Notes: a model not told the origin generated them from the letters alone. Numbered from the stretch's first letter, positions 13,489 through 47,750 are shown. The stretch: 64,000 nt of DNA from Thermoanaerobaculia bacterium (GCA_050186295.1 JBFWYP010000006.1:65336-129335), one strand, 5' to 3'. Program-made: numbers and translations.

Positions 13489-14154
<666 letters not shown>

Positions 14155-14187
14155 GCGGCGGCTCCTTGTCGTCGCTCTCGAACCGGT

Positions 14188-15830
<1,643 letters not shown>

Positions 15831-15834
<4 letters not shown>

Positions 15835-16805
15835 CGGGCGATCCCCTGGGCGGCGGCGTCGTTGGCTGCCGATTGCGTTGGCGAAAGACTCTTGACGTAG
15901 GTGACCAGCTGATTGAGCGTCTCGTCGGAGAGCTGGCCCTGGAACGACGGCATCAGCGGTTCGTATCCCTGGACGATCTTGGCGGTCGGCATCAGGATCG
16001 ACTCCCGGATGTAGGCGTCGTCGACCAGGACCTTCTCGCCGCTGGCGAGCGTGACCTCGGTACCGACGATGCCGTGCAGGATCGGCCCGCGGCCGCCCGG
16101 CTCGGCCTTGTGGCAGGTGTCGCAGGCGTACTGGGCGAAGAGCTGCGCGCCGGCGCCGCCCGACGACTTCGCGGCCGGAACGCCCGAGAGCCAGGCCTCA
16201 TACTCACCCGGCTCCTGCACCACCACCGTGCCGATCATCTTCGAATGCTCGGCGCCGCAGAACTCGGTGCAGAACAGGTGGTAGCGGCCGGTCTTGGTCG
16301 GTTTGAACCAGAGGCTCGAGGTGCGGCCGGGGACGACGTCCGCCTTCACCCGGAACGCGGGGACGAAGAAGCTGTGGATCACGTCCTCGGACGTCATGAT
16401 GAGTCGCGTCGACTGTCCGACCGGAACGTGGAGCTCGTTGATCTCGCGCTGCCCGGTGGGATGCTGGAGCTTCCACATCCACTGCTTGCCGGTGACGTAG
16501 TACTCGACGGCGTCGGCGGGCGGCTTGTAGAGGCGGAAGAAGACCTTGAGGCCCCAGCCGAAGGTGAAGAGCACGATGAGCAGCGGGATGACCGTCCAGG
16601 TGATCTCGAGGAAGGCGGAGTTCTCGAAGGCGCTGCCGACCTCGTCGGGACTCCGGCGGCGATACTTGATCGCGAAGACGATCACCATGGCGGCGATGAG
16701 CACCGTGAAGAATGTGCTCATTCCGACCAGGAAGAACGTCAGCCGATCGACCTCGCCCGCGAGTTCCGAAGCCTGTTCGGGCACGAAGGGAATCTTGAAA
16801 TTCAT
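15831..16805 (-). CDS. ctaC: Cytochrome c oxidase subunit II with C-terminal cytochrome c domain (caa3 type)
   Basis: CuA centre HSFFVPAF...[12 protein letters not shown] plus a C-terminal CDTCH heme-c motif. ATGA overlap with ctaD. Confidence 0.85.
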
Positions 16806-17707
16806 ACCGAGGCGACTCCTTCAACCGAAGCGCCGGCGCTCCGGTGTTTCCGGCGTTCGCTGCGCAACATCCAGAGGATCGAGCCGAAGAGCACCAGCAG
16901 GGTCACCGTCGCCGCCACCTTGAGCGACAACATGGTGCCGGCGGTGTACTTGCCCAGCGCGGCGTCGTAATTGAAACAGAGCAGGAGGAGCTTCTCGGCG
17001 AGTCCGCCGATCCGCCCTTCGCCGGCCTCGAACAGGGCCAGCTTGAGATCCTTCGGCGCGTACTCGACGCCGTAGAGGTAGCGCGAGATGCGACCGTCGG
17101 CGGTCAGCGCGATGACGCCGCTGGCGTGCGCGTACTGACGGGTGGTCACGTCGTAGGCATAGCGGAAGCCGGCGGCCTCGGTGAGCCGCGCGACGTTTGC
17201 TTCGTCCCCGGTCAGGAAGTGGATTCCGGAAGCGCGCTCCGGGTGGCCGTAGCGCGCCACGATCGCGGCCTTCTTCTCGGCGGCGAGCTCGGCGGTGTCG
17301 GTCGGGTCGAAGCTCACGAAGAGGAGCTCGAACTCGTCTCCCGGAGCGTAGGGAATTCCCTTCATCGACGCCGCGACACCGATCGCCGTCTGCGTGCACA
17401 GGACGGGGCAGCGGTAGTAGACCAGCGCGAGGAGGACCGGCTTCTCGCCGAAGTAGTCACCGAGGCGGACGGCGCGGCCGGTCTCGTCGCGCAGCTCGAG
17501 ATCGAGCGGCACGCTCACGCCGAGGCGCTGGTCGAAGCCGACGCGCTCCTGGATCTGCTGCGCGGTCAGGGCGCCCGGCTGCGACTCCCGGCGGGCGAGA
17601 CCCGGCCCGGTGAACACCTTCTCGGCGACCAGCGGCGCGGCGAGCTGGCTCGAGAGAGCCAGCGCCAGCAGGGCGCGGTGGGCGACGGAGGGGTGCATCG
17701 GACTCAT
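16802..17707 (-). CDS. SCO1/SenC copper chaperone
   Basis: Thioredoxin-fold CPVLC copper-binding motif (YYRCPVLCTQ), a conserved His, and a C-terminal TM anchor. ATGA overlap with ctaC. Confidence 0.8.
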   Translation of the reverse strand: MSPMHPSVAHRALLALALSSQLAAPLVAEKVFTGPGLARRESQPGALTAQQIQERVGFDQRLGVSVPLDLELRDETGRAVRLGDYFGEKPVLLALVYYRCPVLCTQTAIGVAASMKGIPYAPGDEFELLFVSFDPTDTAELAAEKKAAIVARYGHPERASGIHFLTGDEANVARLTEAAGFRYAYDVTTRQYAHASGVIALTADGRISRYLYGVEYAPKDLKLALFEAGEGRIGGLAEKLLLLCFNYDAALGKYTAGTMLSLKVAATVTLLVLFGSILWMLRSERRKHRSAGASVEGVASV

Positions 17708-17717
17708 TCGGCGTGAC

Positions 17718-18185
17718 TCAGTGCCCCGACCCGGGCGCGGTGTGCTCTTCGGCCGCGGCGGCGGCGACGGGCTCCGGCGCAGCGACCGGCGGCGTCGCCG
17801 TGGCGTCGGCGGCCGGCTCGGGCACGGCGAGGCGGTCGATCGCTCTCTCGATCGGCATGTGGGCGATGCCGGCTCGCTGGTCGACCCAGCCCCAGGAGGA
17901 CAGGGCGGCGCTGGTGCTCCGGCGGAGCTCCTGGAGCTCGACCTCTGGCCGGGACTGGAGATGCGGCTCCGGCGGCACCGCTGGAACGCGGGCTTCGGCG
18001 AGCGGTGACGGCTTCGGGTCGGCCCGCTCGGTCCAGCTCCCGAGCGCCTTGTAGAGGAAGTAGCCGACGATCAGGGAGCCGATGGTGATTCCGGCGAGCC
18101 AGGCGGCGATCTCGAGGACCCGCCGGACGTCGATCTCGGAATCGAAACCGCCGGACTGCCCGGGAGACGGAGAGTGACTACTCAT
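17718..18185 (-). CDS. Small single-TM membrane protein of the ACIII-caa3 operon (possible ActG-like)
   Basis: 155 aa with one TM helix (LEIAAWLAGITIGSLIVGYFLY) and a Pro/Ala-rich tail. Assigned by position between actF and sco1; 8-nt overlap with actF. Confidence 0.4.
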   Translation of the reverse strand: MSSHSPSPGQSGGFDSEIDVRRVLEIAAWLAGITIGSLIVGYFLYKALGSWTERADPKPSPLAEARVPAVPPEPHLQSRPEVELQELRRSTSAALSSWGWVDQRAGIAHMPIERAIDRLAVPEPAADATATPPVAAPEPVAAAAAEEHTAPGSGH

Positions 18186-19374
18186 GGCCGAGGGCTTCCT
18201 GGAGGTTGGGGGCGTTGACCGGCAGGAGCGGCGCCTTGGCGAGCTCGCGGGTGAACGCGAAGAGCCAGATGCCGCCGAGCGCCAGGGGAGTCGCGAGATA
18301 GAGCCAGTGGATCGAGAACGCCTCGTGGTGCCAGGTCGGGCGGGAGAGCCACACCAGGTCGACCAGGCGCATGAACAGGACGAATGCCGCGACCCGGGCG
18401 AGCGAACGGGTGCGCTCCTTGACGCCGCGCGAGAGCAGGATCAGGAACGGGAAGAAGAAGTGGAAGACGAGGAGTCCGGCAGCCACCACCCCCCAGCCGC
18501 CGTGGAAGCGCTCCTGGAACCAGATCGCCTCTTCGGGCAGGTTGCCCTGCCACATGATGATGTACTGCGAGATCGAGAGGTAGGTCCAGAACATCACGAA
18601 GGCGAACAAGAGCTTGCCGTAGTCGTGCGAGAGCGTGCGGCTGATCACCGCTTCCATCGGCGCCCGCTGGCGCAGCCAGTTGACGATCAGGATGACGAAC
18701 GACATGCCGGCGAGCGCCTGGCCGGCGACGAAGATCCCGCCGTAGAGGCTCGAGAACCAGTGCGGATCCAGCGACATCAGCCAGTCGAAGCCGAGGAAGG
18801 TGTTGATCACCACCCAGAGCAGCAGACCGACGGCGCTCATGTTGTGCATCGAGCCCTTGATCGCCGGATCGCCCGTGGCGTCCTGGCGCCGCGACTTGGC
18901 GGAGAGGACGTAGGCATAGAGGCTGAAGATCGCGATGGCGAAGATCGTCCGGCCGATGAAGAACGGCACGTTGAGGTAGGGCGCCTTGTGCTCGAGCAGC
19001 GCGTCGCCGGCCACGTGCGCCGGATCGGCCCAGAGGAAGAGCTCCTTCATGCCGAAGAAGAGCGGTATCGCGGCGAGGCCGACAAGGGGCAGGGTGCGCG
19101 AGCCGGCCTCGAGGATGCGGCGTGCCGCGAGGCCCCAGGCGCCGCCCGACAGGTGTTGCATGAGCAGGAAGCCGAGACAGCCGGAGGCGACGGTGTACCA
19201 GAGGAGCCAGGCGACGAGATAGGCCTGGAAGAACTCGGCGCGGGCGACGAAGAGACCGGCGACCGAGGCCGCGGCGGCGACGGCTCCGACGACGAGCGCC
19301 TTGCCACCGAGGCCCGAGAGCGCGCCGGGGGGCGCGACGTCTTCTGCGTGGAGTGGGAAATGGAGCGTCGTCAT
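18178..19374 (-). CDS. actF: Alternative complex III subunit ActF (NrfD/PsrC-like polytopic membrane subunit)
   Basis: A ~400-aa, 10-TM NrfD-like protein paralogous to ActC, in actABCDEF order. Confidence 0.75.
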   Translation of the reverse strand: MTTLHFPLHAEDVAPPGALSGLGGKALVVGAVAAAASVAGLFVARAEFFQAYLVAWLLWYTVASGCLGFLLMQHLSGGAWGLAARRILEAGSRTLPLVGLAAIPLFFGMKELFLWADPAHVAGDALLEHKAPYLNVPFFIGRTIFAIAIFSLYAYVLSAKSRRQDATGDPAIKGSMHNMSAVGLLLWVVINTFLGFDWLMSLDPHWFSSLYGGIFVAGQALAGMSFVILIVNWLRQRAPMEAVISRTLSHDYGKLLFAFVMFWTYLSISQYIIMWQGNLPEEAIWFQERFHGGWGVVAAGLLVFHFFFPFLILLSRGVKERTRSLARVAAFVLFMRLVDLVWLSRPTWHHEAFSIHWLYLATPLALGGIWLFAFTRELAKAPLLPVNAPNLQEALGHE

Positions 19375-19396
19375 AGCGCGGTCGGGAGTCCTCGTT

Positions 19397-20041
19397 CTAG
19401 TGGTGCCCGGCTTCGCCGGAATGGGCGTCGGATTCGGCGGCGACGGGCTGGTCGAGTCGTGCCCGGTCCTCGGGAGCGAGCGTTCCGGCGTCGACGTGCT
19501 GCGAGAGCTGCAGCGCGCGGATGTAGGCCGCGATCGCCCAGCGATCGGCGGGCGGGACCTGCGGCGCGTAGGTCGACATGACGCCGAAACCGTTGGTCAT
19601 GACGTCGAAGAAGTAGCCCACCGGCGCCTCCCGCAGCCGTGCCTCGTGGTACGAGGGGGGCTGCTTGTAGCCGCGCTGGACGACCATCCCGCGGCCGTCG
19701 CCCAGCTTGCCGTGACAGGGGGAGCAGAAGATGTCGTAGCGCTCGCGGCCTCTGAGAAGCAGGGCGCGGGTCATCGGCATCGGCAGTTCGGTCGTCATCG
19801 AGCCGTCGGCGGCACGGCCGGTGAAGAACAGCTTGTCCTCCCGGAGCTCGCCCCGCGCCACGGTGTGGGCGGGAATCTCGCGGATGCCGCTGCCGTCGGC
19901 GAAGAAGTCGCTCGACCGGTACGGCTTGAGCTTCGGCTGATTGTGCATGTCCTGGCGGCAGCCTGCGGCGACGAGCGCCAGTGCAGCCAGGGAGAGAGCG
20001 AGCGCCGGACCGGTCCGGCGGCGGAGGTCAGGACTCGACAT
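19397..20041 (-). CDS. actE: Alternative complex III subunit ActE (lipoprotein monoheme cytochrome c)
   Basis: Lipobox LVAAGC and a single CSPCH heme-binding motif. Confidence 0.7.
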   Translation of the reverse strand: MSSPDLRRRTGPALALSLAALALVAAGCRQDMHNQPKLKPYRSSDFFADGSGIREIPAHTVARGELREDKLFFTGRAADGSMTTELPMPMTRALLLRGRERYDIFCSPCHGKLGDGRGMVVQRGYKQPPSYHEARLREAPVGYFFDVMTNGFGVMSTYAPQVPPADRWAIAAYIRALQLSQHVDAGTLAPEDRARLDQPVAAESDAHSGEAGHH

Positions 20042-20581
20042 CGTGAACCTCCAGGGCGCCGGTGCCGAGCAGGAACTCGCGCGTCGCCGTGCGCTCGAAC
20101 TTCGCGTCCTCGGCCTCGACGCAGAGGAAGAAGCCGTCCCGCGAGGCCTTGCGGCGGAAACTCTCGACGTTGAACACCGGGTGATAGGGCTGCGGCAATC
20201 CGTTGAGCGCCATCATGCCGATCCCCGCCGAGAACGACGCGAGGAGGATGGTGCATTCGAAGATCACCGGGATGAACGCCGGCCAGCTGTTGTACGGCTT
20301 GCCGCCGATGTTCATCGGGTAGTCGATGGTGGAGGTCCAGAACTCGAGGCCCCATCCGCCCAGCGCGCCCATGATGCCGCCGGCGAGACAGATCAGCGGC
20401 ACCCGCGAACGCTGGTGGTTGCAGACCTCTTCCGAGATCGCCTCGACCGGGAACGGAGTGAACGCGTCGATCGCGTTGAATCCCGCCCGCCGTGCCTTGC
20501 GCACGGCCTCGAGCAGCTCCTGCGCCGATCCGTACTCCGCGAGGATGCCGTAAATGCCGGCCGTCGATTCCGTCATGGCAG

Positions 20582-20585
<4 letters not shown>
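20028..20585 (-). CDS. actD: Alternative complex III subunit ActD
   Basis: About 185 aa, with the real start MTAMTESTAGIYGIL... overlapping the actC stop (ATGA). One C-terminal TM helix. Assigned by position and size between actC and actE. Confidence 0.6.
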
Positions 20586-25074
<4,489 letters not shown>

Positions 25075-25100
25075 GTCGGGCTTCACGGATCCCCTGTCAA

Positions 25101-25751
25101 TTAGCGATGGCAGGTCGAGCAGCTGACCTTGCTCTGTACGTTGTGGGCTTCGGCCCAGATCGCCTGCTGCGCCGCGAGGTCGGCCGGGGGCTGCCAGAAG
25201 ACGTTGGTGACCTCGGAGGCCGGCCGCAGGTTCTTCACCGGATCGCGGTGGCAGTCGAGACACCAGCTCATCGTCAGCGGCTGACCCTGGTACATGAGCG
25301 GCATCTTGTCGACGGGGCCGTGGCAGGTGGTGCAGGCCACGCCCTTGGCGACATGGATCGAGTGGTTGAAGTAGACGAAGTCGGGCAGGTCGTTGACCCG
25401 GTTCCAGCGGATCGGCTTGCCTTCGCGGTAGCTCGCCCGGATCGGCTCGAGCAGCTGGGCGTTCGTCCACAGCTGGTTGTGGCAGTTCATGCAGGTCTGG
25501 GTCGGCGGGATCCCCGCCGACGCCTGGCTCTCGACCGCGGTGTGGCAGTAGCGGCAGTCGATTCCGATCTGGGCCACGTGGTGATCGTGGGAGAACGGCA
25601 CCGGCTGTTCGAGAACGATCCCCTGACGCGTCACGTAGCCGGAATGGGCGACGCGCCAGAGCGCGAAGCCTCCCGCCGCGGCGAGGAAGAGGGCCACGAA
25701 GATCGACGCCTTCGCAAAGGCGTTCGCACTGCGAGAGAAGATCTGCGCCAT
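25101..25751 (-). CDS. actA: Alternative complex III subunit ActA (membrane-anchored pentaheme cytochrome c)
   Basis: An N-terminal TM anchor followed by five CxxCH motifs (CRYCH, CMNCH, CTTCH, CLDCH, CSTCH). Confidence 0.8.
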   Translation of the reverse strand: MAQIFSRSANAFAKASIFVALFLAAAGGFALWRVAHSGYVTRQGIVLEQPVPFSHDHHVAQIGIDCRYCHTAVESQASAGIPPTQTCMNCHNQLWTNAQLLEPIRASYREGKPIRWNRVNDLPDFVYFNHSIHVAKGVACTTCHGPVDKMPLMYQGQPLTMSWCLDCHRDPVKNLRPASEVTNVFWQPPADLAAQQAIWAEAHNVQSKVSCSTCHR

Positions 25752-27691: not shown

Positions 27692-28453
27692 CTACTTCTT
27701 CTTCCGCGCCTGGGCCTGCGCCATCGGGTCGTACTTCACTTCCTGGTAGCCGGCCGGGGGGTCGTACTGTCCGGCGGGGGCCGGCCGGTCTTCGACCTTG
27801 GTGAGCTCGGAGCTGCTGCCGAAGGTCTTCCCCATGACGGTGGTGGAGGTGTCGGAGCGCACCGGGAAGCCCTTGATCTTCTCGGCCATCTCCTTGATCC
27901 ACTGCGAGTTCGGGGCGAGCTCGCCCTGCATCTCCTGGAGCGCCTTGTAGCGTGAGATGTCGATCGGCAGCTTCTCGGTCGAGCAGATGTCCATCGCCAT
28001 CTGCATCATGCCCATCGAGATGTTCACCTTGGAGTAGTTGCACGAGACTCCCGCGAACTCGCCGGTGCGGTCGGTCGGCGTGACCGTGGTCGACGCCGCC
28101 ATCGACTTCATCATCATCTCGATCATCGGCGCCATCTCGTCGGGAACGATCTGCTCGAAGGTGAACGGAAGGTTGATCGTCGAGTAGGTTCTGGCGTCGT
28201 GGTTCACGAAGTAGAGCTTCTTCGCGTCCGTGCGGACGATCACCGACGTCTCTCCGGCGTCGAAGCGCGTGCCGTTCGGCCCGAACCAGTATTCGTGGTC
28301 GATGTCCTGTGCCGGCGTCTTGGTGCCCATCATCTGCATGGCATCGGTGTGGCTGCGCATCACGAGGACCTTGTCGGCGGCGAGCGGCGCGCTGGCGACG
28401 AGGGCGGCGAGACAGGCGGCGGAGGCGAGCTTTCTCGGTGCGTTCGGCTGCAT
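27692..28453 (-). CDS. Secreted hypothetical protein (DUF4412-like)
   Basis: Signal peptide MQPNAPRKLASAACLAALVASAPLAA. The start is trimmed to 28453, with an AAGGAG-like RBS. Confidence 0.5.
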   Translation of the reverse strand: MQPNAPRKLASAACLAALVASAPLAADKVLVMRSHTDAMQMMGTKTPAQDIDHEYWFGPNGTRFDAGETSVIVRTDAKKLYFVNHDARTYSTINLPFTFEQIVPDEMAPMIEMMMKSMAASTTVTPTDRTGEFAGVSCNYSKVNISMGMMQMAMDICSTEKLPIDISRYKALQEMQGELAPNSQWIKEMAEKIKGFPVRSDTSTTVMGKTFGSSSELTKVEDRPAPAGQYDPPAGYQEVKYDPMAQAQARKKK

Positions 28454-28602
28454 TTCGGCTCCTTGGAGTTCCCGGTCGGGGGTGACGTTCGCGGGCGATC
28501 CCGGGTGTGGTCTCGGCGTCGGACTCGGCGCCCGCATGCGAGGGTGCGATTGTAACCGAGCCGGTTGCGGAAGCACGACGAGCGGGGTCTAAGATCTCCG
28601 AC

Positions 28603-31600
28603 ATGCGATCCGCGCTCCGCCTCTCGAGGATTCTCCACCGGTTCGGTTCCTCCCGTTCGTGCGCGGCAGGGGTCGCCTTTGGTCTCGTCGTCGTCGTCGT
28701 CGCCGGCTGCCAGGCGGGTGCCGCGACGATCGTCGAAAACGGAAAGAAGAGCGCGATGTCCGAAGCCGGCCCAGAGACCTGGAAGGAGATCGATCGCCTG
28801 GTCGGCGAGCAGAAGCTCGAGGCGGCGGCGAAGCTGGTCGATGCCCGGGTCGCTGCGGCGGACGAAGCCCGGAACGACGACGAGCTCGCCCGGGCACTGG
28901 TGCGGCGGGCGCAGCTCCGCATCGCCCTCGGCGGCTTCGCGACCGCGGTCGAGGCGCTGCGCGCGAGCCGCTGGCCGGAGAAACCGCTCGCGCATGCCGC
29001 GGTCGAGCTCTACTACGCGCACGCCCTGCTCGACTATCTCGAGGCCTACGACTGGGAGATCCGGCAGCGCGAGCTCGTCGTCTCGGGCGAGACTCTCGAC
29101 CTCGAGCGCTGGACCGCGGCGCAGCTCGCGGACGAAGCCGAGCGGGCGTTCCTCGACGTCTGGGAGAGCCGCGAGGCGCTCGGCGCCGTCGCAGTCGACG
29201 ACTTCCCGTACCTGCGCCCGAACGACTTCCCCGAAGGGATCCGCGACACGCTGCGCGACGCGGTCTCCTACCTCTTCGTCGAGCGGATGCTCGGCAACTC
29301 GCGCTTCTGGTCGGCCGCCGAATCGAACGAGGCCTGGCAACTCGACCTCGAGAACCTGATCGCCGACCGCCCCGTCGTGCCCGCGACGGGGCCGGTCCAC
29401 CCGCTGCTCCGTGCCGCCGTCGTGCTCGCCGACCTCGAGGCGTGGCACCGCGGCAGGAGGGAGCTCGGGGCCGAGCTCCAGGCGCGGATCGCGCGGCAGG
29501 CGACGATCGCCGATCACCGCGAGGGCGCCACGGACCGCGGGCGCCTCCGCGCGGAGCTCGAGCGGCGGCTGCCGCGCTACCGCGACGACCCGTGGTGGGC
29601 CGTCGGCGTCGCCGACCTCGCCGGCGACATCGATCGCGACGACCCGGCGCCGGATCACCGGATCCGCGCGCGCGAGCTCACGCTCCGGGGCGAGCAGGCC
29701 TATCCCGGGAGCTACGGCGCCGACCGCTGCCGGCAGCTGCGGGAGGAGATCGAGGCGCCCGACTTCTCGGTCCAGGCGATGTCCTCGGACGGACCGCGGG
29801 AGCGGTCGTTCGAGGTGACGCACCGCAATCTGCCGCGTCTCCACTTCCGTGCCTTCCGTGTCGATCCCGACGCCGAGCTCGGGCGGGCGGAGTTCCGGGG
29901 GGTCTTCCCCAACGACGCGCGCGAGATCGAGCGCCGGCTGGCCGACAGACCGGTCGCCGAGTGGACCGCCGAGCTGCCGCCGACGCCGGACTACTCGTCG
30001 CACCGCACGTTCGACACCCCGCCCCTCGCCGAAGCGGGCCTCTACTTCGTCGTCGCCTCCGCCGACCGGTCGTTCCGGGCGCGGGGCAACCGGCGCGTGG
30101 CGGTTCCGTTCCTGGTTTCGGACCTCGTCCTCCTCGAAGGGGCGGCGAACGAGAATCCCTGGGAGGTCCGCGTCGTGTCGGGAGGAAGCGGCGCGGCGAT
30201 CGCCGGCGCCGAGGTCGCGCTCTACCGCAACACCTGGCGCCGGGCCCCCGAGCGGATCGCGACGGAGAAGAGCGGTGCGGACGGCCGCGCGCGGCTCGCG
30301 GCGGAGACCGGCCGCGACGCGACGAACTTCCTCGTGGTGGCGCGGCGCGGGGGCGACATCGCCTTCTCGCAGCGCTACCTCTACGGCCGGCGGAGCGAGC
30401 CTTCCGAGCAGACCGCCGCCCTCGTCTTCACCGACCGCGCGATCTACCGGCCACTGCAGAAGGTCGAATGGAAGATCCTGGGCTACCGCAGCGGTCCGGC
30501 GCGCGGGCGGCTGGTACCGTCGCCGCGGATGCCGGCGACGGTCTCGCTCCTCGACCCGAACGGCGAGGAGGTGCAGGAGCTCGCCGTCACCACGAACGAG
30601 TTCGGGACGGCGGCGGGCGCGTTCGAGATTCCGGCCGGGCGCCTCCTCGGGCTCTGGACGGTCCGCACGACGGCGAACGGCTCGGCGTCGATCCGTGTGG
30701 AGGAGTACAAACGGCCCACGTTCGAGGTCGAGATCGGCGAGCCGGACTCGGCGCTGCGGCTCAACCGTGTCGCCGAGCTCGTCGGGAACGCGCGCTACTA
30801 CTTCGGCCTGCCGGTGGCGGGCGGCAGGGTCGCCTGGCGCGTGACGCGGACGCCCGAGTGGCCGGTCTGGTGGCGGTTCTGGGCGCCGCCCGGCGGCGCC
30901 ACCGAAGCGCAGACGATCGCCAGCGGTGTGGCTCCGCTGTCCGACGACGGCACCTTCCGCGTCCGCTTCACACCCGCCGCCGACGAGCGCGAGAAGACGA
31001 GCGGCGCGACCTATCGCTACCGCCTCGAGGCGGACGTCACCGACGACGGCGGCGAGACCCGGAGCGGCGACCGTACGTTCCGCCTCGGCTGGGTGGCGGT
31101 CGAGGCGACGCTCGAGAAGGAGGATCCGCTCTTCGTCGCCGGTGAGGCGATGACCGTCGTCGCGACGCGCCGCGATCTCGACGGAGTCGCGCGTCCGGGC
31201 AGCGGGAGCTTCCGGCTCGTCGCGCTCGACGTGCCGGCGAGAGCGCCGCTCCCGGCCGCGCTCCCCGTCCGTCCCGCGCACGCGGCGGCGAAGGACGATC
31301 CGTACGCGACGCCCGGCGACGCGCTCCGGCCGCGCTGGTCGGGCGGCACGACCGTCGCCGACACGCTCGCCTTCTACGCCGACGGCCGCGAAGTACGGCG
31401 CGGCGAGCTGGCGCACGATGCGCGGGGGCGCTCGACGATCGACCTGGCGGGCGTCCCGGCCGGTGCCTATCGCCTGCGGTACGCGACGACCGACCCGTTC
31501 GGCGAGACCTTCGAGAACCGTCTCGACTTCGTCGTCGCCGCGACCGCAGGCGGAGGCGCGAAACTCGCGCTGCCGGCGGCGATCCTCTTCGATCGCGGCG

Positions 31601-34600
31601 AGGCCCGGCCGGGCGATACCGCCAGGCTCTGGGTGCACTCCGATCTCGGTGACGCTCCGGCCGAAGTCGAGCTCCACCGCGGAGACGAGATCGTCTGGCG
31701 GAAGCAGGTGCGTCTCCGGGGCACGACCTGGTTCGACGTCCCGGTGGCCGAGGCGGATCGCGGCGGGCTCGCCGCGCGCCTGGTGCTGGTCGCCGAGCAT
31801 CAGCTGATGGCGCCCGGCGTTTCGCTCGCCGTGCCGTGGACGAACCGTGAGCTGGCGGTCGAGATCTCGTCGCTCCGCGACAAGCTGACGCCGGGCGGCA
31901 GGGAGAGCTTCCGCGTCACGGTGAAGGACGCGAAGGGGCGCGCCGTCGAGGCGGGCGCCGCCGAGCTCCTCGCCTCGATGTACGACCGCAGCCTCGACCT
32001 CTTCGCCCCGTTCTCGCAGCCGCGGCCGATCGCCCTCTTTCCGACCACGACCTCCCTTCCGCCGGTGCAGAGCAGCCTCGGCACGACCGGTGCGGTCTGG
32101 ATCCGCGACGAAGAGTGGGTCAAGCGCAGCGTGGCGCGCAGCGTCTCGGGCGATTCGTTCGTCGAGATCTCGCCCTACGGCATCGGCGGACCGGGCGGGA
32201 GGTTCCGCCGCTTCGGCGGCTACGCGCGCGGCGGCGTCGCCATGGCCGACGCGGCGATGCCGGCTTCGGCTCCGCCACCGCCGCAGCCGCTGGCGAAGGA
32301 GGCGGAGGCGGACCAGGGAACGGCGGTGGCGGAGAGCCTCGCGGTGCGGTCGGAGGCCCCCACGGCGGACGTCCCGCTGCGCTCGAACTTCGCCGAGACG
32401 GCGTTCTGGCGACCGCAGCTCCTCACCGGCGCCGACGGTTCGGCGACGATCGAGTTCACCGTGCCCGACTCGGTGACTTCGTGGCGGCTCTGGGTGTCGG
32501 CGCTCACGAAGTCGTTCGCCTCGGGGTTCTCGGAGCGCCAGGTCGACTCGGTGAAGGAGCTGATGGTGCGGCCGTATCTGCCGCGCTTCCTGCGCGAGGG
32601 GGACCGCGCCGAGCTCAAGGTGGTGGTGAACGACGCCGGCGATTCGCCGCTCTCCGGCACGGCGCGACTCGAGATCTTCGACCCGGAGACGAACGAGTCG
32701 CTGCTCGGCGAGTTCGGTCTCGACGCCTCGTCCTCGTCGCGGCCGTTCCGGGTCGAACCGGGCAGGGGAGTCGACCTCCTCTTTCCGCTCGCGGCGCCGC
32801 ACCGCGTCGGCCCGACCGCCTTCAAGGTCACCGCCACGGCGGGGAATCTCTCGGACGGCGAGCTGCGGCCGCTTCCGGTCCTGCCGTCGCGGATCCGGCT
32901 CGCGCAGTCGCGCTTCGTGACCCTGAAGAACGCCGACCGCCGCGAGATGACGTTCGACGAAATGAAGCTCCCCGATCCGACGCGCGAGAACGAGCAGCTC
33001 GTGGTGACCGTCGACGGCCAGCTCTTCTACTCGATGCTCGACGCCCTGCCGTATCTCGTCGACTATCCGTACGAGTGCACCGAGCAGACGATGAACCGCT
33101 TCGTCTCGACCGGGATGCTGGCGAGCCTCTTCGACGGCTACCCGGCGCTCGCCGCGATGGCCGCGGAGATGGCGGAGCGGGAGACGCCGTACGAGCGCTT
33201 CGATGCCGCCGATCCGAACCGCAGCATGGGACTCGAAGAGACTCCCTGGCTGCGCGAGTCGCGCGGCAGCGCCGCCGGCGCGGAGGGCGTCGATTTCCTG
33301 CGCGTGCTCGACCCGACGGTCTCGCGAGCCGAGCGCGACGACGCCCTGGCCAAGCTCGCGAAGGCGCAGCTGCCGAACGGCGGCTTCCCCTGGTTCTCCG
33401 GCGGTCCGGCCTCGCCCTACATCACTCTCTATCTCGCGAGCGGCTTCGCGCGGGCGGCCGAGTTCGGTGTCGACGTGCCGAAGCCGATGGTCCAGCGCGC
33501 CTGGAGCTATCTCGGCGCCGAGGCGAAGCGCGACTGGCTGCCGAAGGCGATCGCCGACGACTGCTGCTGGGAGCTCCTCACGTTCCTCAACTACGTCGCC
33601 TCGTCGTATCCCGACGAGTCGTGGGTGGGCGACTTCCTCGAGCCGGCCGACCGGAAGCGGATCCTCGACTTCTCGTTCAAGCACTGGAAAGAGCACGCCC
33701 CGCTCCTCAAGCTCCAGCTCGCGCTGACGCTCCAGCGCGCGGGGCGTCCCGCGGACGCGAAGCTGGTGCTCGCGAGCGTCATGGACTCGGCGAAGACGAC
33801 GCGCGACGAAGGCACCTTCTGGCAGCCGGAGGACCGCTCCTGGCTCTGGTACAACGACCGGATCGAGACCCACGCCTGGGCGCTGCGGGCGCTGATGGAG
33901 ATCACCCCCGACGATCCGCGCCGCGACGGACTGGTGCAGTGGCTGTTCCTCAACAAGAAGCTCAACCACTGGAAGTCGACGCGCGCGACGGCGGAGGTGC
34001 TCTATTCGCTCGCCTGGTACCTCCGGGCGACGAATCAGCTCGCGGTGCGCGAAGAGGCGTCCGTCACCGCGGCGCACCGGACGACGACGTTCGTCTTCGA
34101 ACCCGAACGCTTCACCGGCAGGAAGAACCAGGTCGTCGTCGAGGGTGCGAAGCTCGACGCGGAGAAGCGGCCGGCCGATGCCACGGTCGTCGTCGAGAAG
34201 ACGACTCCCGGTCTCCTCTTCGCCTCGGCGACCTGGCGGTTCTCGACCGAGGAGCTGCCGGCGGAGGCGCGCGGCGATCTGTTCGAGGTCACGCGGCGCT
34301 ACTTCCGGCGCGTCAAGACGGGCGACGAGGTCACGCTTCGTCCGCTCGACCGCAGCGCGCGCCTCGCGGTCGGCGATGAAGTCGAAGTCCAGCTCTCGGT
34401 CCGTGCGAAGGCGGCGGCCGAGTACGTGCACCTCCGCGATCCGCGCCCGGCCGGGCTCGAGCCCGATCGCGCGGTGTCGGGGTGGAAGTGGGATCTGGGC
34501 CTCGCGCGCTACGAGGAAACGCGCGACAGCGGCTCGAACTTCTTCTTCGAACGGCTGCCGGCCGGCGAGTACACGATGAAGTACCGCCTGCGGGCGAACC

Positions 34601-34704
34601 TGGCCGGCGAGTTCCGGAGCGCCCCCGCCCAGCTCCAGTCGATCTACGCTCCCGAGTTCGTCGCCTACTCGGCCGGCGAGCGGCTGGTCATCGCCTCGCC
34701 CTGA
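28603..34704 (+). CDS. Alpha-2-macroglobulin family lipoprotein with thioester motif (bacterial A2M, ~2033 aa)
   Basis: Lipobox VVVVAGC after the signal peptide, thioester motif YPYECTEQTMNRF (CxEQ), and a long MG-domain-like region. Start trimmed from 28507 to the ATG at 28603. Confidence 0.75.
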   Translation: MRSALRLSRILHRFGSSRSCAAGVAFGLVVVVVAGCQAGAATIVENGKKSAMSEAGPETWKEIDRLVGEQKLEAAAKLVDARVAAADEARNDDELARALVRRAQLRIALGGFATAVEALRASRWPEKPLAHAAVELYYAHALLDYLEAYDWEIRQRELVVSGETLDLERWTAAQLADEAERAFLDVWESREALGAVAVDDFPYLRPNDFPEGIRDTLRDAVSYLFVERMLGNSRFWSAAESNEAWQLDLENLIADRPVVPATGPVHPLLRAAVVLADLEAWHRGRRELGAELQARIARQATIADHREGATDRGRLRAELERRLPRYRDDPWWAVGVADLAGDIDRDDPAPDHRIRARELTLRGEQAYPGSYGADRCRQLREEIEAPDFSVQAMSSDGPRERSFEVTHRNLPRLHFRAFRVDPDAELGRAEFRGVFPNDAREIERRLADRPVAEWTAELPPTPDYSSHRTFDTPPLAEAGLYFVVASADRSFRARGNRRVAVPFLVSDLVLLEGAANENPWEVRVVSGGSGAAIAGAEVALYRNTWRRAPERIATEKSGADGRARLAAETGRDATNFLVVARRGGDIAFSQRYLYGRRSEPSEQTAALVFTDRAIYRPLQKVEWKILGYRSGPARGRLVPSPRMPATVSLLDPNGEEVQELAVTTNEFGTAAGAFEIPAGRLLGLWTVRTTANGSASIRVEEYKRPTFEVEIGEPDSALRLNRVAELVGNARYYFGLPVAGGRVAWRVTRTPEWPVWWRFWAPPGGATEAQTIASGVAPLSDDGTFRVRFTPAADEREKTSGATYRYRLEADVTDDGGETRSGDRTFRLGWVAVEATLEKEDPLFVAGEAMTVVATRRDLDGVARPGSGSFRLVALDVPARAPLPAALPVRPAHAAAKDDPYATPGDALRPRWSGGTTVADTLAFYADGREVRRGELAHDARGRSTIDLAGVPAGAYRLRYATTDPFGETFENRLDFVVAATAGGGAKLALPAAILFDRGEARPGDTARLWVHSDLGDAPAEVELHRGDEIVWRKQVRLRGTTWFDVPVAEADRGGLAARLVLVAEHQLMAPGVSLAVPWTNRELAVEISSLRDKLTPGGRESFRVTVKDAKGRAVEAGAAELLASMYDRSLDLFAPFSQPRPIALFPTTTSLPPVQSSLGTTGAVWIRDEEWVKRSVARSVSGDSFVEISPYGIGGPGGRFRRFGGYARGGVAMADAAMPASAPPPPQPLAKEAEADQGTAVAESLAVRSEAPTADVPLRSNFAETAFWRPQLLTGADGSATIEFTVPDSVTSWRLWVSALTKSFASGFSERQVDSVKELMVRPYLPRFLREGDRAELKVVVNDAGDSPLSGTARLEIFDPETNESLLGEFGLDASSSSRPFRVEPGRGVDLLFPLAAPHRVGPTAFKVTATAGNLSDGELRPLPVLPSRIRLAQSRFVTLKNADRREMTFDEMKLPDPTRENEQLVVTVDGQLFYSMLDALPYLVDYPYECTEQTMNRFVSTGMLASLFDGYPALAAMAAEMAERETPYERFDAADPNRSMGLEETPWLRESRGSAAGAEGVDFLRVLDPTVSRAERDDALAKLAKAQLPNGGFPWFSGGPASPYITLYLASGFARAAEFGVDVPKPMVQRAWSYLGAEAKRDWLPKAIADDCCWELLTFLNYVASSYPDESWVGDFLEPADRKRILDFSFKHWKEHAPLLKLQLALTLQRAGRPADAKLVLASVMDSAKTTRDEGTFWQPEDRSWLWYNDRIETHAWALRALMEITPDDPRRDGLVQWLFLNKKLNHWKSTRATAEVLYSLAWYLRATNQLAVREEASVTAAHRTTTFVFEPERFTGRKNQVVVEGAKLDAEKRPADATVVVEKTTPGLLFASATWRFSTEELPAEARGDLFEVTRRYFRRVKTGDEVTLRPLDRSARLAVGDEVEVQLSVRAKAAAEYVHLRDPRPAGLEPDRAVSGWKWDLGLARYEETRDSGSNFFFERLPAGEYTMKYRLRANLAGEFRSAPAQLQSIYAPEFVAYSAGERLVIASP

Positions 34705-34716
34705 GAAGCGGCGGCG

Positions 34717-35148
34717 TCAGCGCTCCTTCGGCTCCACGATCAGGTAGACGACGGTCGTGTCGCCGATGTTCTCGATCTCGTGCCAGGCGACCCCGGTGCT
34801 CGAGAACGAGCTGCCGGTCGCGAGCTCGGCCTCGCGGACGCCGCGTTCGTCGGTGATCCGGACGCGGCCGCCGGCGAGCGCGTAGCCGAAGTGCGCCGCG
34901 TGGAAGTGACGCTCGTGACCGGTCCCGGGCGGGAAGGTGCAACGCAGGACGCGGAGCGTGGCGGACTCTTCGAGACGCTCGCACACGGGCGTGCCGCGCC
35001 AGCCCGCCGCCAGCGGATCCGGCAGGCCGTCGCCCGCCGCTCGCGGCTTCGGGAGCGGGGCCGTGGCGCAGGCCGCGCCGAGAACCAAGAGCGCCGCCGC
35101 GAAGATCCAGGCCGGGGCGCATGTCCGCACGCTCGATGGACGGGGCAT
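34717..35148 (-). CDS. Secreted cupin-domain protein
   Basis: Signal peptide, then a two-His cupin motif HERHFHAAHFGYALAGG...GVAWHEIEN. Confidence 0.6.
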   Translation of the reverse strand: MPRPSSVRTCAPAWIFAAALLVLGAACATAPLPKPRAAGDGLPDPLAAGWRGTPVCERLEESATLRVLRCTFPPGTGHERHFHAAHFGYALAGGRVRITDERGVREAELATGSSFSSTGVAWHEIENIGDTTVVYLIVEPKER

Positions 35149-37019: not shown

Positions 37020-39782
37020 TTGAAACGTGCCTTCGCCGTGGTCTGTGTCCTGCTCGCAGCGGGCATCGCCGCCTGGGTCGCCGTGCGGGAAAGCGCGGGC
37101 GGCGGGGCCGGTGTGGGCTCGCGCGGCCCGGGCGAGCCGATCGCGCGCCACCGGCGGTCGATCCTCCTGATCACCACCGACACCACACGGCCCGATCGTC
37201 TCGAGCCGTACGGTGCGACGAATGTCGCGACGCCGAGCCTCGAGCGTCTCGCCGAGTCCGGAATCGTCTTCGAGAACGCCTACAGCGTGGCGCCGATCAC
37301 GCTGGTCGCGCACACCAGCATCAACACCGGCCTCTATCCGTACCAGCACGGGGTCCGCAACAACGGTCTGCAGCACGTGCCGCCGTCGGTGACGACCCTC
37401 GCGGAGCGGCTCTCGGCGCGCGGGTTCCGCACCGCCGCCTTCGTCTCGGCGGCGGTGCTCGACAAGCGCTACGGGCTCGACCAGGGATTCGAGGTCTACG
37501 ACGACGATCTGTCGACCGGTCGCGACCGCTCGCCGCGCCAGGTCGCCGACCGCCCGGCCGAGGCCACGGTCGCCGCCGCGACGGAGTGGCTGGGAACGCT
37601 GAAGCCGGGCGAGCCGTTCTTCCTCTGGGTGCACTTCTACGATCCGCACGCCGCTTACTCGCCGCCGCCGCCGTTCCGCGACGACTATCGGGAGCGGCTC
37701 TACGACGGCGAGATCGCCTACATGGATTCGCAGATCGGGATGCTGCTCAAGCACCCCGCCCTGCGCAACGACGACGTAGCGACCCTGGTCGTCGGAGATC
37801 ACGGCGAGAGCCTCGGCGAGCACGGCGAGTCGACCCACGCGATCCTGCTCTACGACAGCACCGTCCACGTGCCGATGATCCTGCGGATCCCCGGCGGGCC
37901 GCGCGGTCTCCGGATCACGGAGAACGTCGGCCAGGTGGACATCGTCCCGACGCTGCTCTCGCTGATCGACGTACCTGGAGGCGAGGAGCTTGCGGGCCGC
38001 GATCTCCTGCCCCTGCTCGAGGGGCGCGGCGGCGACGAGGCGCGCACCTACTATTCGGAGACCTATCTGCCGTACTACACCTACGGCTGGGCCAAGTTGA
38101 AGGCGGTCCACTCGGGTCGGCAGAAGTACATCGAGGCGCCGACCGAGGAGCTGTTCGACCTCCACCGCGACCCGCGCGAGCTGACCAACATCGCGACGCA
38201 GCAGCCGGGCTCGCTGCACGACCTCCAGCGCGACCTGAAGGGGATGCTCTCGTCGGTCGAGGATCCGGAGGCGGAGACCGACCTGAGCCTCGATCGCGAG
38301 GCCGCCGAGCAGCTCCGCAGTCTGGGCTATCTCGCGGTCGGTTCGGCGCCCCGCCAGGTCGCGAACCGGCCGAATCCGAAGGATCTCATCGACCTGCACG
38401 TGAGTCTCGAACGGGCGCGGGTGCTCGCGCAGGACCGGCTCTTCGAGCAGGCGGAGGCGGAACTGCAGAAGGTCTTGCGCCGCGATCCGGAGAATCTCGC
38501 GGCGATGATCGATCTGATCGGTGTCTATCAGGGGATGGACCGGCTCGACGACGCCCTGAGGATCGCCGAGCGCGGCCTGTCGCTCGACCCGAACTACGCC
38601 CGGCTCCACCTCCTGCTCTCCAACATCGAGCTCCGCCGGGGATACCCGGAGAAGGCTCTCGAGCTGCTCGACGCGCGCGCGAAAAAGGACGAAGACGATC
38701 CGGACATGGCGGCGCAGCGGGCGTTGGTGCTGCTGCGTCTCGGCCGCCAGGACGAGCTCCGCGCGACGCTCGAGGCGGCGCTCGAGAAGTCGCCGGAGCA
38801 TGCGCGGCTCAACATTCTCCAGGCGCAGTTCGTCGAAGCGCGTTCCGGCGAGCTCGACCGCGCCGTGGCGCGGCTCAGGAGCCTCCTCGCCCGCGACCCG
38901 TTCCAGGCGCAGGCCTGGGGGGTGCTCGGTCGGCTCGAAGAGCAGCGCCGACGGTTCGACGAGGCGGTCGCGGCCTATCGCTCCGGCCTCGAGCGTTCTC
39001 CCGACGACGGCGAGCTCCACGGGAGCCTGGGGCTCCTCCTGGCGCGGCGCGGCGAGCGGGTCGAAGCGGAGTCGCAGCTGCGCGAGGCCGTGCGGCTCGC
39101 GAACGGCTTCCGCGCCGAGCTCCACGTCAGTCTCGGAGCGCTGCTCGCCGAGTCGGGGCGGTACCAGGAGGCGAAGCAGGAGTACGAGAAGGTTCTCGCC
39201 GTCGAGCCGGCGAACGCCGGCGCGCGCAACAATCTCGCGATCGCCCGCTTCCGCGCCGGGGACGCGGAGGGCGCCCGTGCGGACCTTCTGCGGCTCACTT
39301 CGGAGTTCCCGCGCCACGCCGATGCCTTCAACAACCTGGCGGCGATCGCCGTGGAGCGGGGGGAGTGGAAAGAGGCCGAGCGCTATGCCCGGAGGACTCT
39401 GGAGCTCGCGCCGGAGCTCACCGAGGCCTGGAACAATCTCGGCGTGGCGCTCGAGCAGGAGGACGATCTCGCGGGTGGCCGCCGGGCCTACGAGAAGGCG
39501 CTGGCGCTCGATCCGGAGTACTGGCAGGCGCGCCTCAATCTGGGGATTCTCCTGCGCAAGTCCGGCAGGTCCGAGGATGCGCTGCGCGAGATCGAGGCGG
39601 TGCTCGCCGTGGCGCCGCAGCAGCCCGACGTCCACTACGAGCTCGGAGCGCTCTATGCCGGGCCGCTGCACGATCCGGCGCGGGCGCGGACACACTGGAA
39701 CGCCTTTCTCCGCTACAGCCCCCCGGGTCACCCGCAGCGCGCAGAGGTGCGGCAGAAGATCCTCGACCTTCCACCCGGCTGA
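37020..39782 (+). CDS. Sulfatase (alkaline-phosphatase superfamily) domain fused to multi-TPR repeat domain
   Basis: The N-terminal sulfatase blocks are ILLITTDTTRPDRL and GDHGESLGEHG. The C-terminal ~450 aa hold repeated TPR-like 34-aa units (A..Y..AL..DP...A..NLG...). TTG start at 37020 with an AGGAAGGA RBS. Confidence 0.75.
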   Translation: MKRAFAVVCVLLAAGIAAWVAVRESAGGGAGVGSRGPGEPIARHRRSILLITTDTTRPDRLEPYGATNVATPSLERLAESGIVFENAYSVAPITLVAHTSINTGLYPYQHGVRNNGLQHVPPSVTTLAERLSARGFRTAAFVSAAVLDKRYGLDQGFEVYDDDLSTGRDRSPRQVADRPAEATVAAATEWLGTLKPGEPFFLWVHFYDPHAAYSPPPPFRDDYRERLYDGEIAYMDSQIGMLLKHPALRNDDVATLVVGDHGESLGEHGESTHAILLYDSTVHVPMILRIPGGPRGLRITENVGQVDIVPTLLSLIDVPGGEELAGRDLLPLLEGRGGDEARTYYSETYLPYYTYGWAKLKAVHSGRQKYIEAPTEELFDLHRDPRELTNIATQQPGSLHDLQRDLKGMLSSVEDPEAETDLSLDREAAEQLRSLGYLAVGSAPRQVANRPNPKDLIDLHVSLERARVLAQDRLFEQAEAELQKVLRRDPENLAAMIDLIGVYQGMDRLDDALRIAERGLSLDPNYARLHLLLSNIELRRGYPEKALELLDARAKKDEDDPDMAAQRALVLLRLGRQDELRATLEAALEKSPEHARLNILQAQFVEARSGELDRAVARLRSLLARDPFQAQAWGVLGRLEEQRRRFDEAVAAYRSGLERSPDDGELHGSLGLLLARRGERVEAESQLREAVRLANGFRAELHVSLGALLAESGRYQEAKQEYEKVLAVEPANAGARNNLAIARFRAGDAEGARADLLRLTSEFPRHADAFNNLAAIAVERGEWKEAERYARRTLELAPELTEAWNNLGVALEQEDDLAGGRRAYEKALALDPEYWQARLNLGILLRKSGRSEDALREIEAVLAVAPQQPDVHYELGALYAGPLHDPARARTHWNAFLRYSPPGHPQRAEVRQKILDLPPG

Positions 39783-45997: not shown

Positions 45998-46540
45998 GTG
46001 ATCCGTTCCGCACGCTCCTCGTTCGCCGGCCTGGCGGGGCTCTGCCTCGGCGTCGGCCTCCTCCTGCCCTCCGGGGCAGAGGCGGGAACTCTGAACGGGG
46101 TCGGCGTCACGCCGGAGGCCGTGCAGCTCGGATCGATCGAGGTGAGCGCTCCGGTCGGCTGCGTCGTCGCCTACACGGTGAGCGTCGTCACCACCCTGGA
46201 GGCGCAGCCGGAACAGTTCGAGATCCAGGTCGCGGACGACGGCGTGATCACGCAGATCGTGCCGCTCGAGGCGCCCGCCGACGGCGCGCTGCACGTCCTG
46301 CAGGGCAGCTTCGCGTTGACGCGGCCGCCCGCCGACGGCAGTCCCGGAGTCGGCATCTACCTGGTCGACGACGGTCTCGTCCTCGATGCGGTGGACCCGT
46401 TCGGCCTGCCTTGTTCGGCGCCCGACGTCCCGGCCCTCGCCGGCTCCGGCTATGTCGCGCTCATCGCCGTGCTCGCGCTCGTTGCGCTCTTCGCACTGCG
46501 CCGGCTCCGACGGCCGAGCGCTGCCGGTCTCGCCTCCTAG
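45998..46540 (+). CDS. Small secreted protein with C-terminal sorting-signal-like tail (VPAL motif + TM + RRLRR)
   Basis: Signal peptide (GTG)IRSARSSFAGLAGLCLGVGLLLPSGAEA. The C-terminus is DVPALAGSGYVALIAVLALVALFALRRLRRP. A sigma70-like TTGCGG-16-TAAACT element lies immediately upstream. Confidence 0.45.
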   Translation: MIRSARSSFAGLAGLCLGVGLLLPSGAEAGTLNGVGVTPEAVQLGSIEVSAPVGCVVAYTVSVVTTLEAQPEQFEIQVADDGVITQIVPLEAPADGALHVLQGSFALTRPPADGSPGVGIYLVDDGLVLDAVDPFGLPCSAPDVPALAGSGYVALIAVLALVALFALRRLRRPSAAGLAS

Positions 46541-47745
46541 TCCCCTTCGCGGCTCGCCGCCGCATTCCCGGAGCCGTCGTAGCCGGTCAGCTCGACGAAG
46601 CCGTGTCCGGCGAGGGCCCGGCCCTGCTCGCGGCCGGTGACGGCGACCGCACCCTCCCAGTAGCGCACCGAGAGGTCGAGCTCCTGGTTCGCGAGCCGCG
46701 GCCGCAGCTCGAGGACGAGATCCTCCTCTACCGTGAGACGCCAGCGGGCCGGATAGGTCGCGCCGTGCGGGCTCCGCCAGGTGGCGAGCTCTTCGATCTT
46801 CAGGCTGCGCTCGTCGAGGAGGCGCGAGCTGCCGTCGCGTGCGGTGAGACGTCCGCGGCTCCACCGGTCGGCCCCGCCGTCCCGTCGTCGCAGCCGGTAG
46901 TACATGAGCTCGCGGCCGTCGTCGAGCTGGAGCGCGAACCAGTCCCAGCCGGCGAGCTCCGGAGCGAGCGCGCTGGTCGACCACTCGCGGTCGAGCCACG
47001 CCTCGCCGGAGACGGCGACCTCGCGGCCGGCGATCTCGACCGTGCCGCGCGCGGAGAGTCGCGGGATCGAGTAGTAGTACGACGCGTTGCCGGGCTCCTC
47101 GCCTTTGCGCGAGAGGCCGTCCTCTCCCTGCAGGAGCGGAGGACGCAGCGCCGTGAGCTCGAGGTCGATCGCACAGTCCGACTCGCGCGCCCGAAGGCGC
47201 AGAGGGGAGAACGGTTCCCCGACGCTCGCGAGGCTCCAGCTCTCGACCCGGACCGCGAAGGGGCTCGCCCGGACCTCCGCCAGCTCTCCGCCTTCCCGGG
47301 TGAGGCGCTCGAAGGCCCGGAACGTTCCGCTGGCCGCGTCGCCGAGCGCGAAGTGCGCCATCCAGACGTGGGCATTGCGGAACGTCGACGGGCTGGCGGG
47401 AATCGCGGAGGGCGGGACGAGCGCGTTGCGGAAGAAGGTGAGCTGGGCGCCGAAGGCGCGACCGTCGGCGGCGAACAGGTTGGCGGTGACGTACCACCAC
47501 TCGGTCCGGAAGCCCTCGTGCGCGCCGTGATCGACCGGGAACCGGAACTCCCGCGGCACCTCGGCGCGCGTGAAGCCAGGGTCCGGCGCGCCGCCCAGCG
47601 CCTCGCCGACCGCGAGCGTCGCGCGGACCTCGTCCCTTCCCGCCCGGCTCCGATCGAGCCGCCAGGCGAAGAAGATCAGGGGGAGCAGGACCGCGACCCA
47701 GATCGAGCCGATCCGGACCGCTCTGCCGGACAGGGGAAGCGCCAT
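46537..47745 (-). CDS. AttH/CrtC-like lipocalin-fold protein (hydroxyneurosporene-synthase-like domain) associated with ABC transporter
   Basis: [22 protein letters not shown] is the N-terminal signature of the CrtC/AttH family. It is the C-terminal real part of the 1285-aa artefactual ORF, with an N-terminal signal/TM. Confidence 0.65.
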
Positions 47746-47750
47746 CGGCC

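Follow-up and report, generated by a model that had tools for sequence, protein, structure and literature searches.

A thioester-bearing alpha-2-macroglobulin lipoprotein of about 2000 residues, with a TPR-like head and no neighbouring pbpC

In the literature the alpha-2-macroglobulins (A2Ms) of bacteria come in two classes: type I proteins have a thioester and are paired with pbpC, which encodes penicillin-binding protein 1C (PBP1c), while type II proteins have none and belong to a mag operon. Both the function of type I proteins and their pairing with pbpC have been described (PMC5764988; PMC3328433), the adjacency of the two genes being reported 'in a number of bacteria' rather than in every one of them (PMC5764988). 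Their biochemistry consists of cleavage of a bait, a conformational change and covalent capture of the protease (PMC5764988; PMC3328433; PMC4498604). Type II proteins trap proteases without a thioester (PMC5764988). Here we describe a gene for an A2M-family lipoprotein of 2033 residues, found in a stretch of 64,000 nucleotides from a Thermoanaerobaculia bacterium (GCA_050186295.1 JBFWYP010000006.1:65336-129335), which we call the window. We consider it probable that its product is an exported, lipid-anchored protease trap of the A2M type, belonging to a distinct architectural class of about 2000 residues and encoded as a single-gene unit without a pbpC operon.

Architecture of the protein and extent of its family

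The open reading frame (ORF), with an ATG at 28603 and a stop at 34704 on the plus strand, has the highest codon-usage score of all genes in a codon-usage map of the 64-kb window. A protein identical over its 2033 residues, with the same start, is held at NCBI under two accessions, MGE0639614.1 and MGE4189545.1 ('MAG: alpha-2-macroglobulin [Thermoanaerobaculia bacterium]'). Its N-terminus, MRSALRLSRILHRFGSSRSCAAGVAFGLVVVVVAG followed by CQ, reads as a signal peptide and a lipobox VAGC, with Cys36 as the predicted lipidated residue and Gln at position +2. The initial annotation had noticed this lipobox, as well as a thioester motif, CTEQ, which stands intact inside YPYECTEQTMNRF (Cys1492 to Gln1495). 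It had also advised a domain scan: Pfam recognises MG2, A2M and bMG10 and, weakly, bMG3 (residues 506-589), while an NCBIfam scan gave no match. With the CTEQ motif, these Pfam domains and a collinear core, the first identification as a thioester-bearing A2M homologue stands.

Comparison with the type I proteins (ECAM, or YfhM, of Escherichia coli and SaA2M of Salmonella; PDB 4ziq, 5a42, 4u48) shows how much is held in common: export as a lipoprotein, a collinear NIE-MG1...MG-BRD-A2M-TED-MG10 core, the thioester context YPYxCxEQT, a variable linker at the position of the bait and the bMG10 domain at the C-terminus. With a profile of 34 family sequences as the query, hhalign aligned residues ~408-2033 with ECAM 193-1652 (probability 98.8%, E 6e-17, 1350 columns, 22% identity). 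At the N-terminal side of this core, the best PDB match found by Foldseek for the model of residues 387-592 is the NIE-MG1 part of ECAM (4zjh, E 1e-7, TM 0.71), the fragment of ECAM that contains MG0 (4zjg) being a poorer fit. In ECAM itself Pfam finds bMG1 (59-163), bMG2 (169-287), bMG3, MG2, bMG5, bMG6, BRD, A2M, TED, CUB and bMG10. Because collinearity begins at residue 408 and ECAM is laid out in this way, the first MG domain (bMG1, or MG0) is the sole ECAM module without a counterpart, and a helical domain takes its place. ECAM has 1653 residues, against 2033 here. Besides the exchange of bMG1 for a solenoid of ~330 residues, the extra length lies in insertions around residues 876-900, in the bait linker and in a conserved stretch of ~45 residues (~1521-1570; 33163-33312) right behind the thioester helix, which pairwise alignment does not find in ECAM. 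The position of the CxEQ motif, the collinear architecture and the signal peptide with its lipobox are thus those of type I, whereas the N-terminal bMG1 and the adjacency of pbpC are absent.

Residues 1201-1255 show the lowest conservation of the mature protein (column identity 0.27-0.42, 62 insertion columns) and lie directly N-terminal to the A2M domain; from that position we infer that they form the bait region. Within the thioester domain, two adjacent cysteines (residues 1654-1655; 33562-33567) occur in the sequence DDCCWE, the family consensus being DCCWE; the two might represent a vicinal disulfide, or else some redox feature.

The initial annotation had pointed to an N-terminal extension of about 500 residues and advised that its structure be predicted. 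The AlphaFold2 (AF2) model of residues 1-616, with a predicted local distance difference test (pLDDT) score of 82, shows a disordered signal and linker region (1-54), an all-helical block (57-384) and two beta domains (387-505 and 508-592). The extension is therefore real, conserved and folded, but its novel part is shorter: ~330 residues of helices (57-386), the beta domains that follow from ~387 belonging to the ECAM-like core. The helical domain is modelled, with a pLDDT of 93, as an all-alpha solenoid of helix-turn-helix units that resembles tetratricopeptide repeats (TPRs). Its helices are irregularly arranged, and two of the loops, at residues 158-171 and 194-216, are long. At E<=0.01 nothing in residues 1-2033 matches a TPR family of Pfam, and the domain matches no Pfam family at all. 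Its likeness to LGN/Pins, Rap phosphatases, kinesin light chain, Scc4 and LapB, at 7-13% identity, is one of fold class only. About 40 positions within it are invariant among relatives, for example H266, D277, E279 and H282.

An exhaustive phmmer search with residues 57-386 against 1.84 billion representatives gave 492 matches (clusters at 50% identity), each of them at positions ~30-400 of its target, and every complete target is 1930-2155 residues long. In the sequences searched, the helical domain did not turn up anywhere but at the N-terminus of A2Ms of this ~2000-residue family, to which it would be exclusive. It is most likely a protein-binding or docking module, as we guess from its fold class; its target might be an envelope component or, in this clade, perhaps the protein of the neighbouring DUF4412 gene discussed below.

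One search result might be taken for a separate N-terminal protein, but is no evidence of one. A word-indexed search with the N-terminal 516 residues gave only fragments of fewer than 900 residues, and their genomic context revealed the same gene, frameshifted in error-prone assemblies. At the near-identical syntenic locus L001 (10001-16094, GCA_041394755.1), for instance, frameshifts cause the A2M gene to be called as at least four ORFs. Many 'homologues' of 300-900 residues in the databases are likewise pieces left by the assembly and no short proteins.

With one genome per species, a pattern scan shows that at least 514 species encode a relative of residues 1-616. Among the best 80 loci, ~60 belong to Acidobacteriota (Thermoanaerobaculia, Holophagales, Aminicenantes), ~16 to Myxococcota and one to Eisenbacteria; the Myxococcota include the cultured Myxococcus xanthus, M. 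dinghuensis, M. qinghaiensis, M. eversor and M. llanfair...ensis, and cluster look-ups added members of the Bdellovibrionota. Some 55 loci align collinearly with residues ~57-2031, their identity being 49-67% (tblastn), and the stop-to-stop ORFs of related loci span ~2010-2100 residues. A signal sequence begins every member; a lipobox-like cysteine follows in 23 of 65 N-termini, mainly those of the nearest Thermoanaerobaculia relatives, and the rest have a plain signal peptide. The protein had at first been singled out as an 'orphan' and as 'unusually long'. Neither is a peculiarity of its own: a length of ~2000 residues and the N-terminal domain recur in these 514 or more species and 492 clusters, and the want of a pbpC neighbour is shared by all of 82 related loci, within 10 kb.

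Weighing the explanations

If the protein is the protease trap that we think it to be, its mode of action can be sketched as follows. Export by the Sec system and lipidation would place it in the cell envelope. An attacking protease, whether foreign or the cell's own, would cut the linker at ~1201-1255, upon which the body of MG domains and thioester domain would rearrange and expose the thioester buried between Cys1492 and Gln1495. This would then bond covalently to the protease, which would be neutralized. More speculatively, the helical head would dock the trap to an envelope partner and so stand in for the MG0 domain of ECAM as well as for its partnership with PBP1c.

Several points weigh against this account. 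Identity to ECAM is only 22%, and Pfam, although it recognises bMG1, bMG2, bMG5, bMG6, BRD, TED (TED_complement) and CUB in ECAM, misses every one of them in the 2033-residue protein. Protease trapping is proposed here by homology, as are bait cleavage and thioester formation, and the role given to the head is read from its fold class. The thioester, finally, is not kept by all. Among 61 full-length sequences of the family, 16, all of them distant members (P0063, P0067, P0082, P0117, P0121, P0127, P0142, P0157, P0159, P0169, P0172 and P0177 are among them), lack its Cys or its Gln, with such sequences as PYQSSEQ, PYEHTEA, PYESSEL or PYECTDT at the site, and yet retain full length and the N-terminal domain. 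Among the close homologues, every complete one has YPYEC[TSAV]EQ except that of locus L057, which reads CTEH (about 14380-14440). With the helical domain kept in these proteins, covalent capture is therefore not essential to the core function of the family.

This loss within a single family mirrors the split between type I and type II. Type II proteins (MagD of Pseudomonas aeruginosa, YfaS of E. coli) resemble the present one as large periplasmic proteins made of MG domains, some of its distant relatives also being devoid of a thioester, and some relatives are labelled 'YfaS (alpha-2-macroglobulin family)' in databases. They lack CxEQ, whereas here CTEQ is intact, and no neighbour of the mag type (the six-gene operon magABCDEF, or yfaA-yfaT) was seen among the neighbours scanned with Pfam: the gene stands as a single unit.

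The want of pbpC bears directly on the first alternative, in which the protein would be an ordinary A2M of the ECAM type that still works with PBP1c, pbpC having moved elsewhere in the genome. The two signature motifs of GT51 had no true match in the six frames of the 64-kb window, nor in 82 related loci taken with flanks of 10 kb; tblastn with E. coli PbpC returned nothing at E<=0.01 in either, and Pfam scans identified none of the large ORFs of the window as a penicillin-binding protein. The yfhM-pbpC locus of E. coli K-12 served as the positive control, its PbpC carrying both motifs. The initial annotation had already reported that no pbpC adjoins the gene, and had imagined that one might lie just beyond, in a rearranged operon; pbpC occurs here neither in the 28 kb upstream nor in the 29 kb downstream, nor does any of the relatives looked at have it inside 10 kb. 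Since the 82 loci, which come from three phyla, are all without a gene of the GT51 or PbpC type at that distance, the unlinking of pbpC from this A2M is ancient and family-wide. A relocated pbpC would agree with the core collinear with ECAM and with the shared YPYxCxEQT context; moreover, the inspection covered 64 kb of the genome, and adjacency is not universal in type I (PMC5764988). Against it stand, besides the 82 loci, the replacement of the N-terminal MG domain of ECAM, the 22% identity and profile scores that are better for CD109 and TEP1 than for ECAM. We hold this alternative to be unlikely.

Improbable too, in our view, is a conserved function that would reside in the helical head and the MG scaffold (non-covalent caging, a structural task in the envelope or a chaperone activity, for which compare the thioester-less MagD), the thioester being an accessory. 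The 16 sequences and L057, without Cys or Gln but with the N-terminal domain and the length preserved, speak for it, as does the trapping of proteases by type II A2Ms, which have no thioester (PMC5764988). Within the clade of the window, however, the columns of YPYECTEQ and those around it rank with the best conserved, at an identity of 0.88, which argues for selection acting on the thioester there.

A third proposal is that the protein tags rather than traps, as complement and the insect TEPs do: the thioester would mark a surface, be it that of prey or competitors or the matrix of the cell itself, and further factors would be recruited by the TPR-like head. The family does have members among predators, namely in such lineages as Myxococcus and Bdellovibrionota. 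In a profile search of PDB sequences the best scores went to CD109 and to mosquito TEP1 (E 1e-20), ahead of the bacterial SaA2M and ECAM (E 1e-12), and A2M was matched as well. This gap is an effect of a few MG domains and carries no phylogeny; collinearity over the full length is with ECAM. CD109, TEP1, A2M/A2ML1 and complement C3, C4 and C5 have in common with this protein the MG2 domain and a thioester motif, GCGEQ in CD109, that aligns with its own. The eukaryotic thioester proteins lack the N-terminal helical domain, while the bacterial MG10 domain and the lipobox are found here, and a Pfam scan of the 2033 residues detected no anaphylatoxin, NTR, LDLa or convertase-type feature. The lipid anchor, too, fits envelope defence better than tagging by a secreted protein. 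Tagging is to be considered very unlikely.

That the N-terminal extension is an artefact of annotation, the true start lying downstream, was a reservation of the initial annotation that can be dismissed: a signal peptide and lipobox stand at the very N-terminus, the domain behind them has the invariant positions and high-confidence fold given above, it occupies the N-terminus of ~2000-residue proteins in hundreds of genomes, and an invariant motif lies 7 nt ahead of the ATG.

The protease trap of a distinct architectural class is thus the explanation that we retain. It may be carried further, and this we offer tentatively, as a doubtful but possible extension: the family would be, in function too, a third class of A2M among bacteria, whose head docks the DUF4412 protein in Thermoanaerobaculia and other envelope partners elsewhere, in replacement of MG0 and of the partnership with PBP1c. 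It would shield soil bacteria that secrete proteases or are predators (Acidobacteriota, Myxococcota, Bdellovibrionota) against proteases of their own or of competitors, and its thioester would have been lost repeatedly.

The surroundings of the gene

Features of the protein and of its immediate neighbours are collected in Table 1.

Table 1. Coordinates, in the window, of the A2M gene, of the parts of its product and of adjacent features.
Feature	Position	Strand	Basis
Complete coding sequence, 2033-residue alpha-2-macroglobulin-family lipoprotein	28603..34704	+	ORF, codon usage, collinear homologues, NCBI identity
Signal peptide and lipobox V-A-G-C	28603..28710	+	Sequence; signal sequence throughout the family
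Family-specific all-alpha TPR-like solenoid, residues 57-386, 17 helices	28771..29760	+	
Pair of beta domains, counterparts of NIE (Pfam A2M_bMG2) and MG1 (Pfam bMG3) in ECAM, residues 387-592	29761..30378	+	AF2, Foldseek, weak Pfam bMG3, hhalign
MG2 domain, residues 606-693	30418..30681	+	Pfam PF01835, E 9.5e-18; aligns with MG2 of CD109, TEP1, A2M, C5 and ECAM
Predicted bait region, residues ~1201-1255	32203..32367	+	Hypervariable low-complexity linker; assigned by position
A2M domain, residues 1266-1351	32398..32655	+	Pfam PF00207, E 1.3e-18
Thioester domain (approximate), residues ~1465-1820	32995..34062	+	Collinear with ECAM TED (hhalign, pairwise); highly conserved in the family
Thioester motif Cys1492-Thr-Glu-Gln1495	33076..33087	+	Aligned with CD109 GCGEQ and ECAM YPYGCLEQT
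Bacterial MG10 C-terminal domain, residues 1894-2018	34282..34656	+	Pfam PF17973, E 1e-28
Divergent Met-rich secreted DUF4412 gene, 253 residues, possible clade-specific partner	27692..28453	-	Pfam PF14371, E 2.6e-12
Cupin_2 gene, convergent	34717..35130	-	Pfam
Upstream motif GCGGGGTCTAAGAT	28582..28595	+	Identical in 11 loci; candidate -10 region, speculative

The neighbours of the A2M gene in the window encode DUF4412, esterase, DUF3014, cupin, porin-like, LTXXQ and sulfatase-TPR proteins. The convergent cupin gene and the divergent DUF4412 gene had been named correctly at the outset, as Pfam confirms, and the protein had been supposed to be 'stand-alone or differently partnered'. This holds insofar as the gene is a single unit and a partner is possible in its own clade, where DUF4412 is linked to it, while no partner is family-wide: clustering of the flanking ORFs across loci found no neighbour conserved throughout. 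The anti-phage models of PADLOC matched neither the A2M protein nor six of its neighbours.

The DUF4412 gene was found in 13 loci by tblastn, and in 22, the window included, by an iterative search seeded with the neighbour at locus L003. It is adjacent and divergent in ~20 of these 22 loci of the Thermoanaerobaculia subclade, at ~150-350 bp from the start of the helical domain of the A2M, and it is absent from the other clades of the family. In the linked loci the A2M proteins are 51-67% identical, the outer flanks differ (esterase and alternative complex III (ACIII) genes in some, fasciclin and MacAB in others) and the DUF4412 proteins have diverged almost beyond detection by BLAST. They have signal peptides and methionine-rich stretches (MMMKSM and MGMMQMAM in the window; GQMMGSMGQMMGG and MSMPMGMGMQ at L003, 7700-8593, minus strand); a sequence search found no solved structure for such a protein. 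The association is suggestive of a clade-specific functional pair, and it could also be a case of persistent synteny.

Other candidates for the role of partner were rejected. For the cupin, LTXXQ, porin-like and sulfatase-TPR genes, conservation does not reach beyond the near-identical locus L001. Genes for MacAB-like ABC proteins and M14 carboxypeptidases occur in no more than some groups of close relatives and are missing from the window, and in Myxococcus and Holophagales the A2M gene sits among housekeeping genes (TyrRS, FtsJ, a RapA-like helicase, acyl-CoA dehydrogenase). In several close relatives one or two genes for large secreted M14 carboxypeptidases with InhA-like MAM domains lie, convergently, right past the stop of the A2M gene (L002 17511-22350; L003 16640-20450; L004 16508-21295; L014 16013-18373; L025 16030-18365). 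The cupin and porin-like genes occupy their place in the window.

Upstream of the A2M gene, GCGGGGTCTAAGAT lies 6-7 nt before the ATG and is invariant in 11 loci, the proteins of which are just 57-67% identical. Farther upstream, in the region 28530-28602, conserved boxes CGGTT(T/G)C and GATTCTAC are found. No Shine-Dalgarno sequence precedes the ATG, a strict scan for sigma-70 promoters and terminators made no promoter call, and an Rfam scan of the 5' region gave no match. We speculate that GCGGGGTCTAAGAT may be the -10 region of a conserved promoter, giving a leaderless or near-leaderless mRNA.

The window at large, with 70% G+C, is ordinary chromosome, with genes for LptD, cytochrome oxidase, alternative-complex-III-like and PabB-like proteins. 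A respiratory block on the minus strand (13489-25751) looks like an alternative complex III and oxidase cluster: it comprises a multihaem cytochrome c (25101-25751), a 1036-residue protein of the Fe-S/molybdopterin type (21976-25086), an NrfD-like membrane protein (20582-21928) and a COX1 haem-copper oxidase (14188-15834), and the genes of L001 syntenic with it match ActD and Cytochrome_CBB3. At 37038-39782, on the plus strand, a fusion of 914 residues joins an N-terminal sulfatase domain to a long C-terminal array of TPRs; it is 99% identical in L001. On the minus strand, at 46537-50231, the gene of a CrtC-like lipocalin protein (402 residues) lies directly downstream of, and in the same orientation as, that of an 826-residue double FtsX-type permease.

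What the family may be for

A family of ~2000 residues that databases already annotate constitutes, by its architecture, a third class of bacterial A2M, which possesses the thioester, does without pbpC and has a TPR-like head instead of the first MG domain. In the searchable literature, including that on the macroglobulins of Myxococcus and Acidobacteria, we found no description of this architecture. The advance is incremental, a variation on a known mechanism. The family lives mainly in free-living bacteria of soil and sediment, some of them predatory, not in colonizers of animals, and this fits poorly with the original idea that bacterial A2Ms are host-colonization factors. Its distribution points instead to a protection of the envelope, in microbial warfare or against self-inflicted proteolysis. 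Natural variants with and without the thioester, together with a member in the genetically tractable Myxococcus xanthus, make the question testable.

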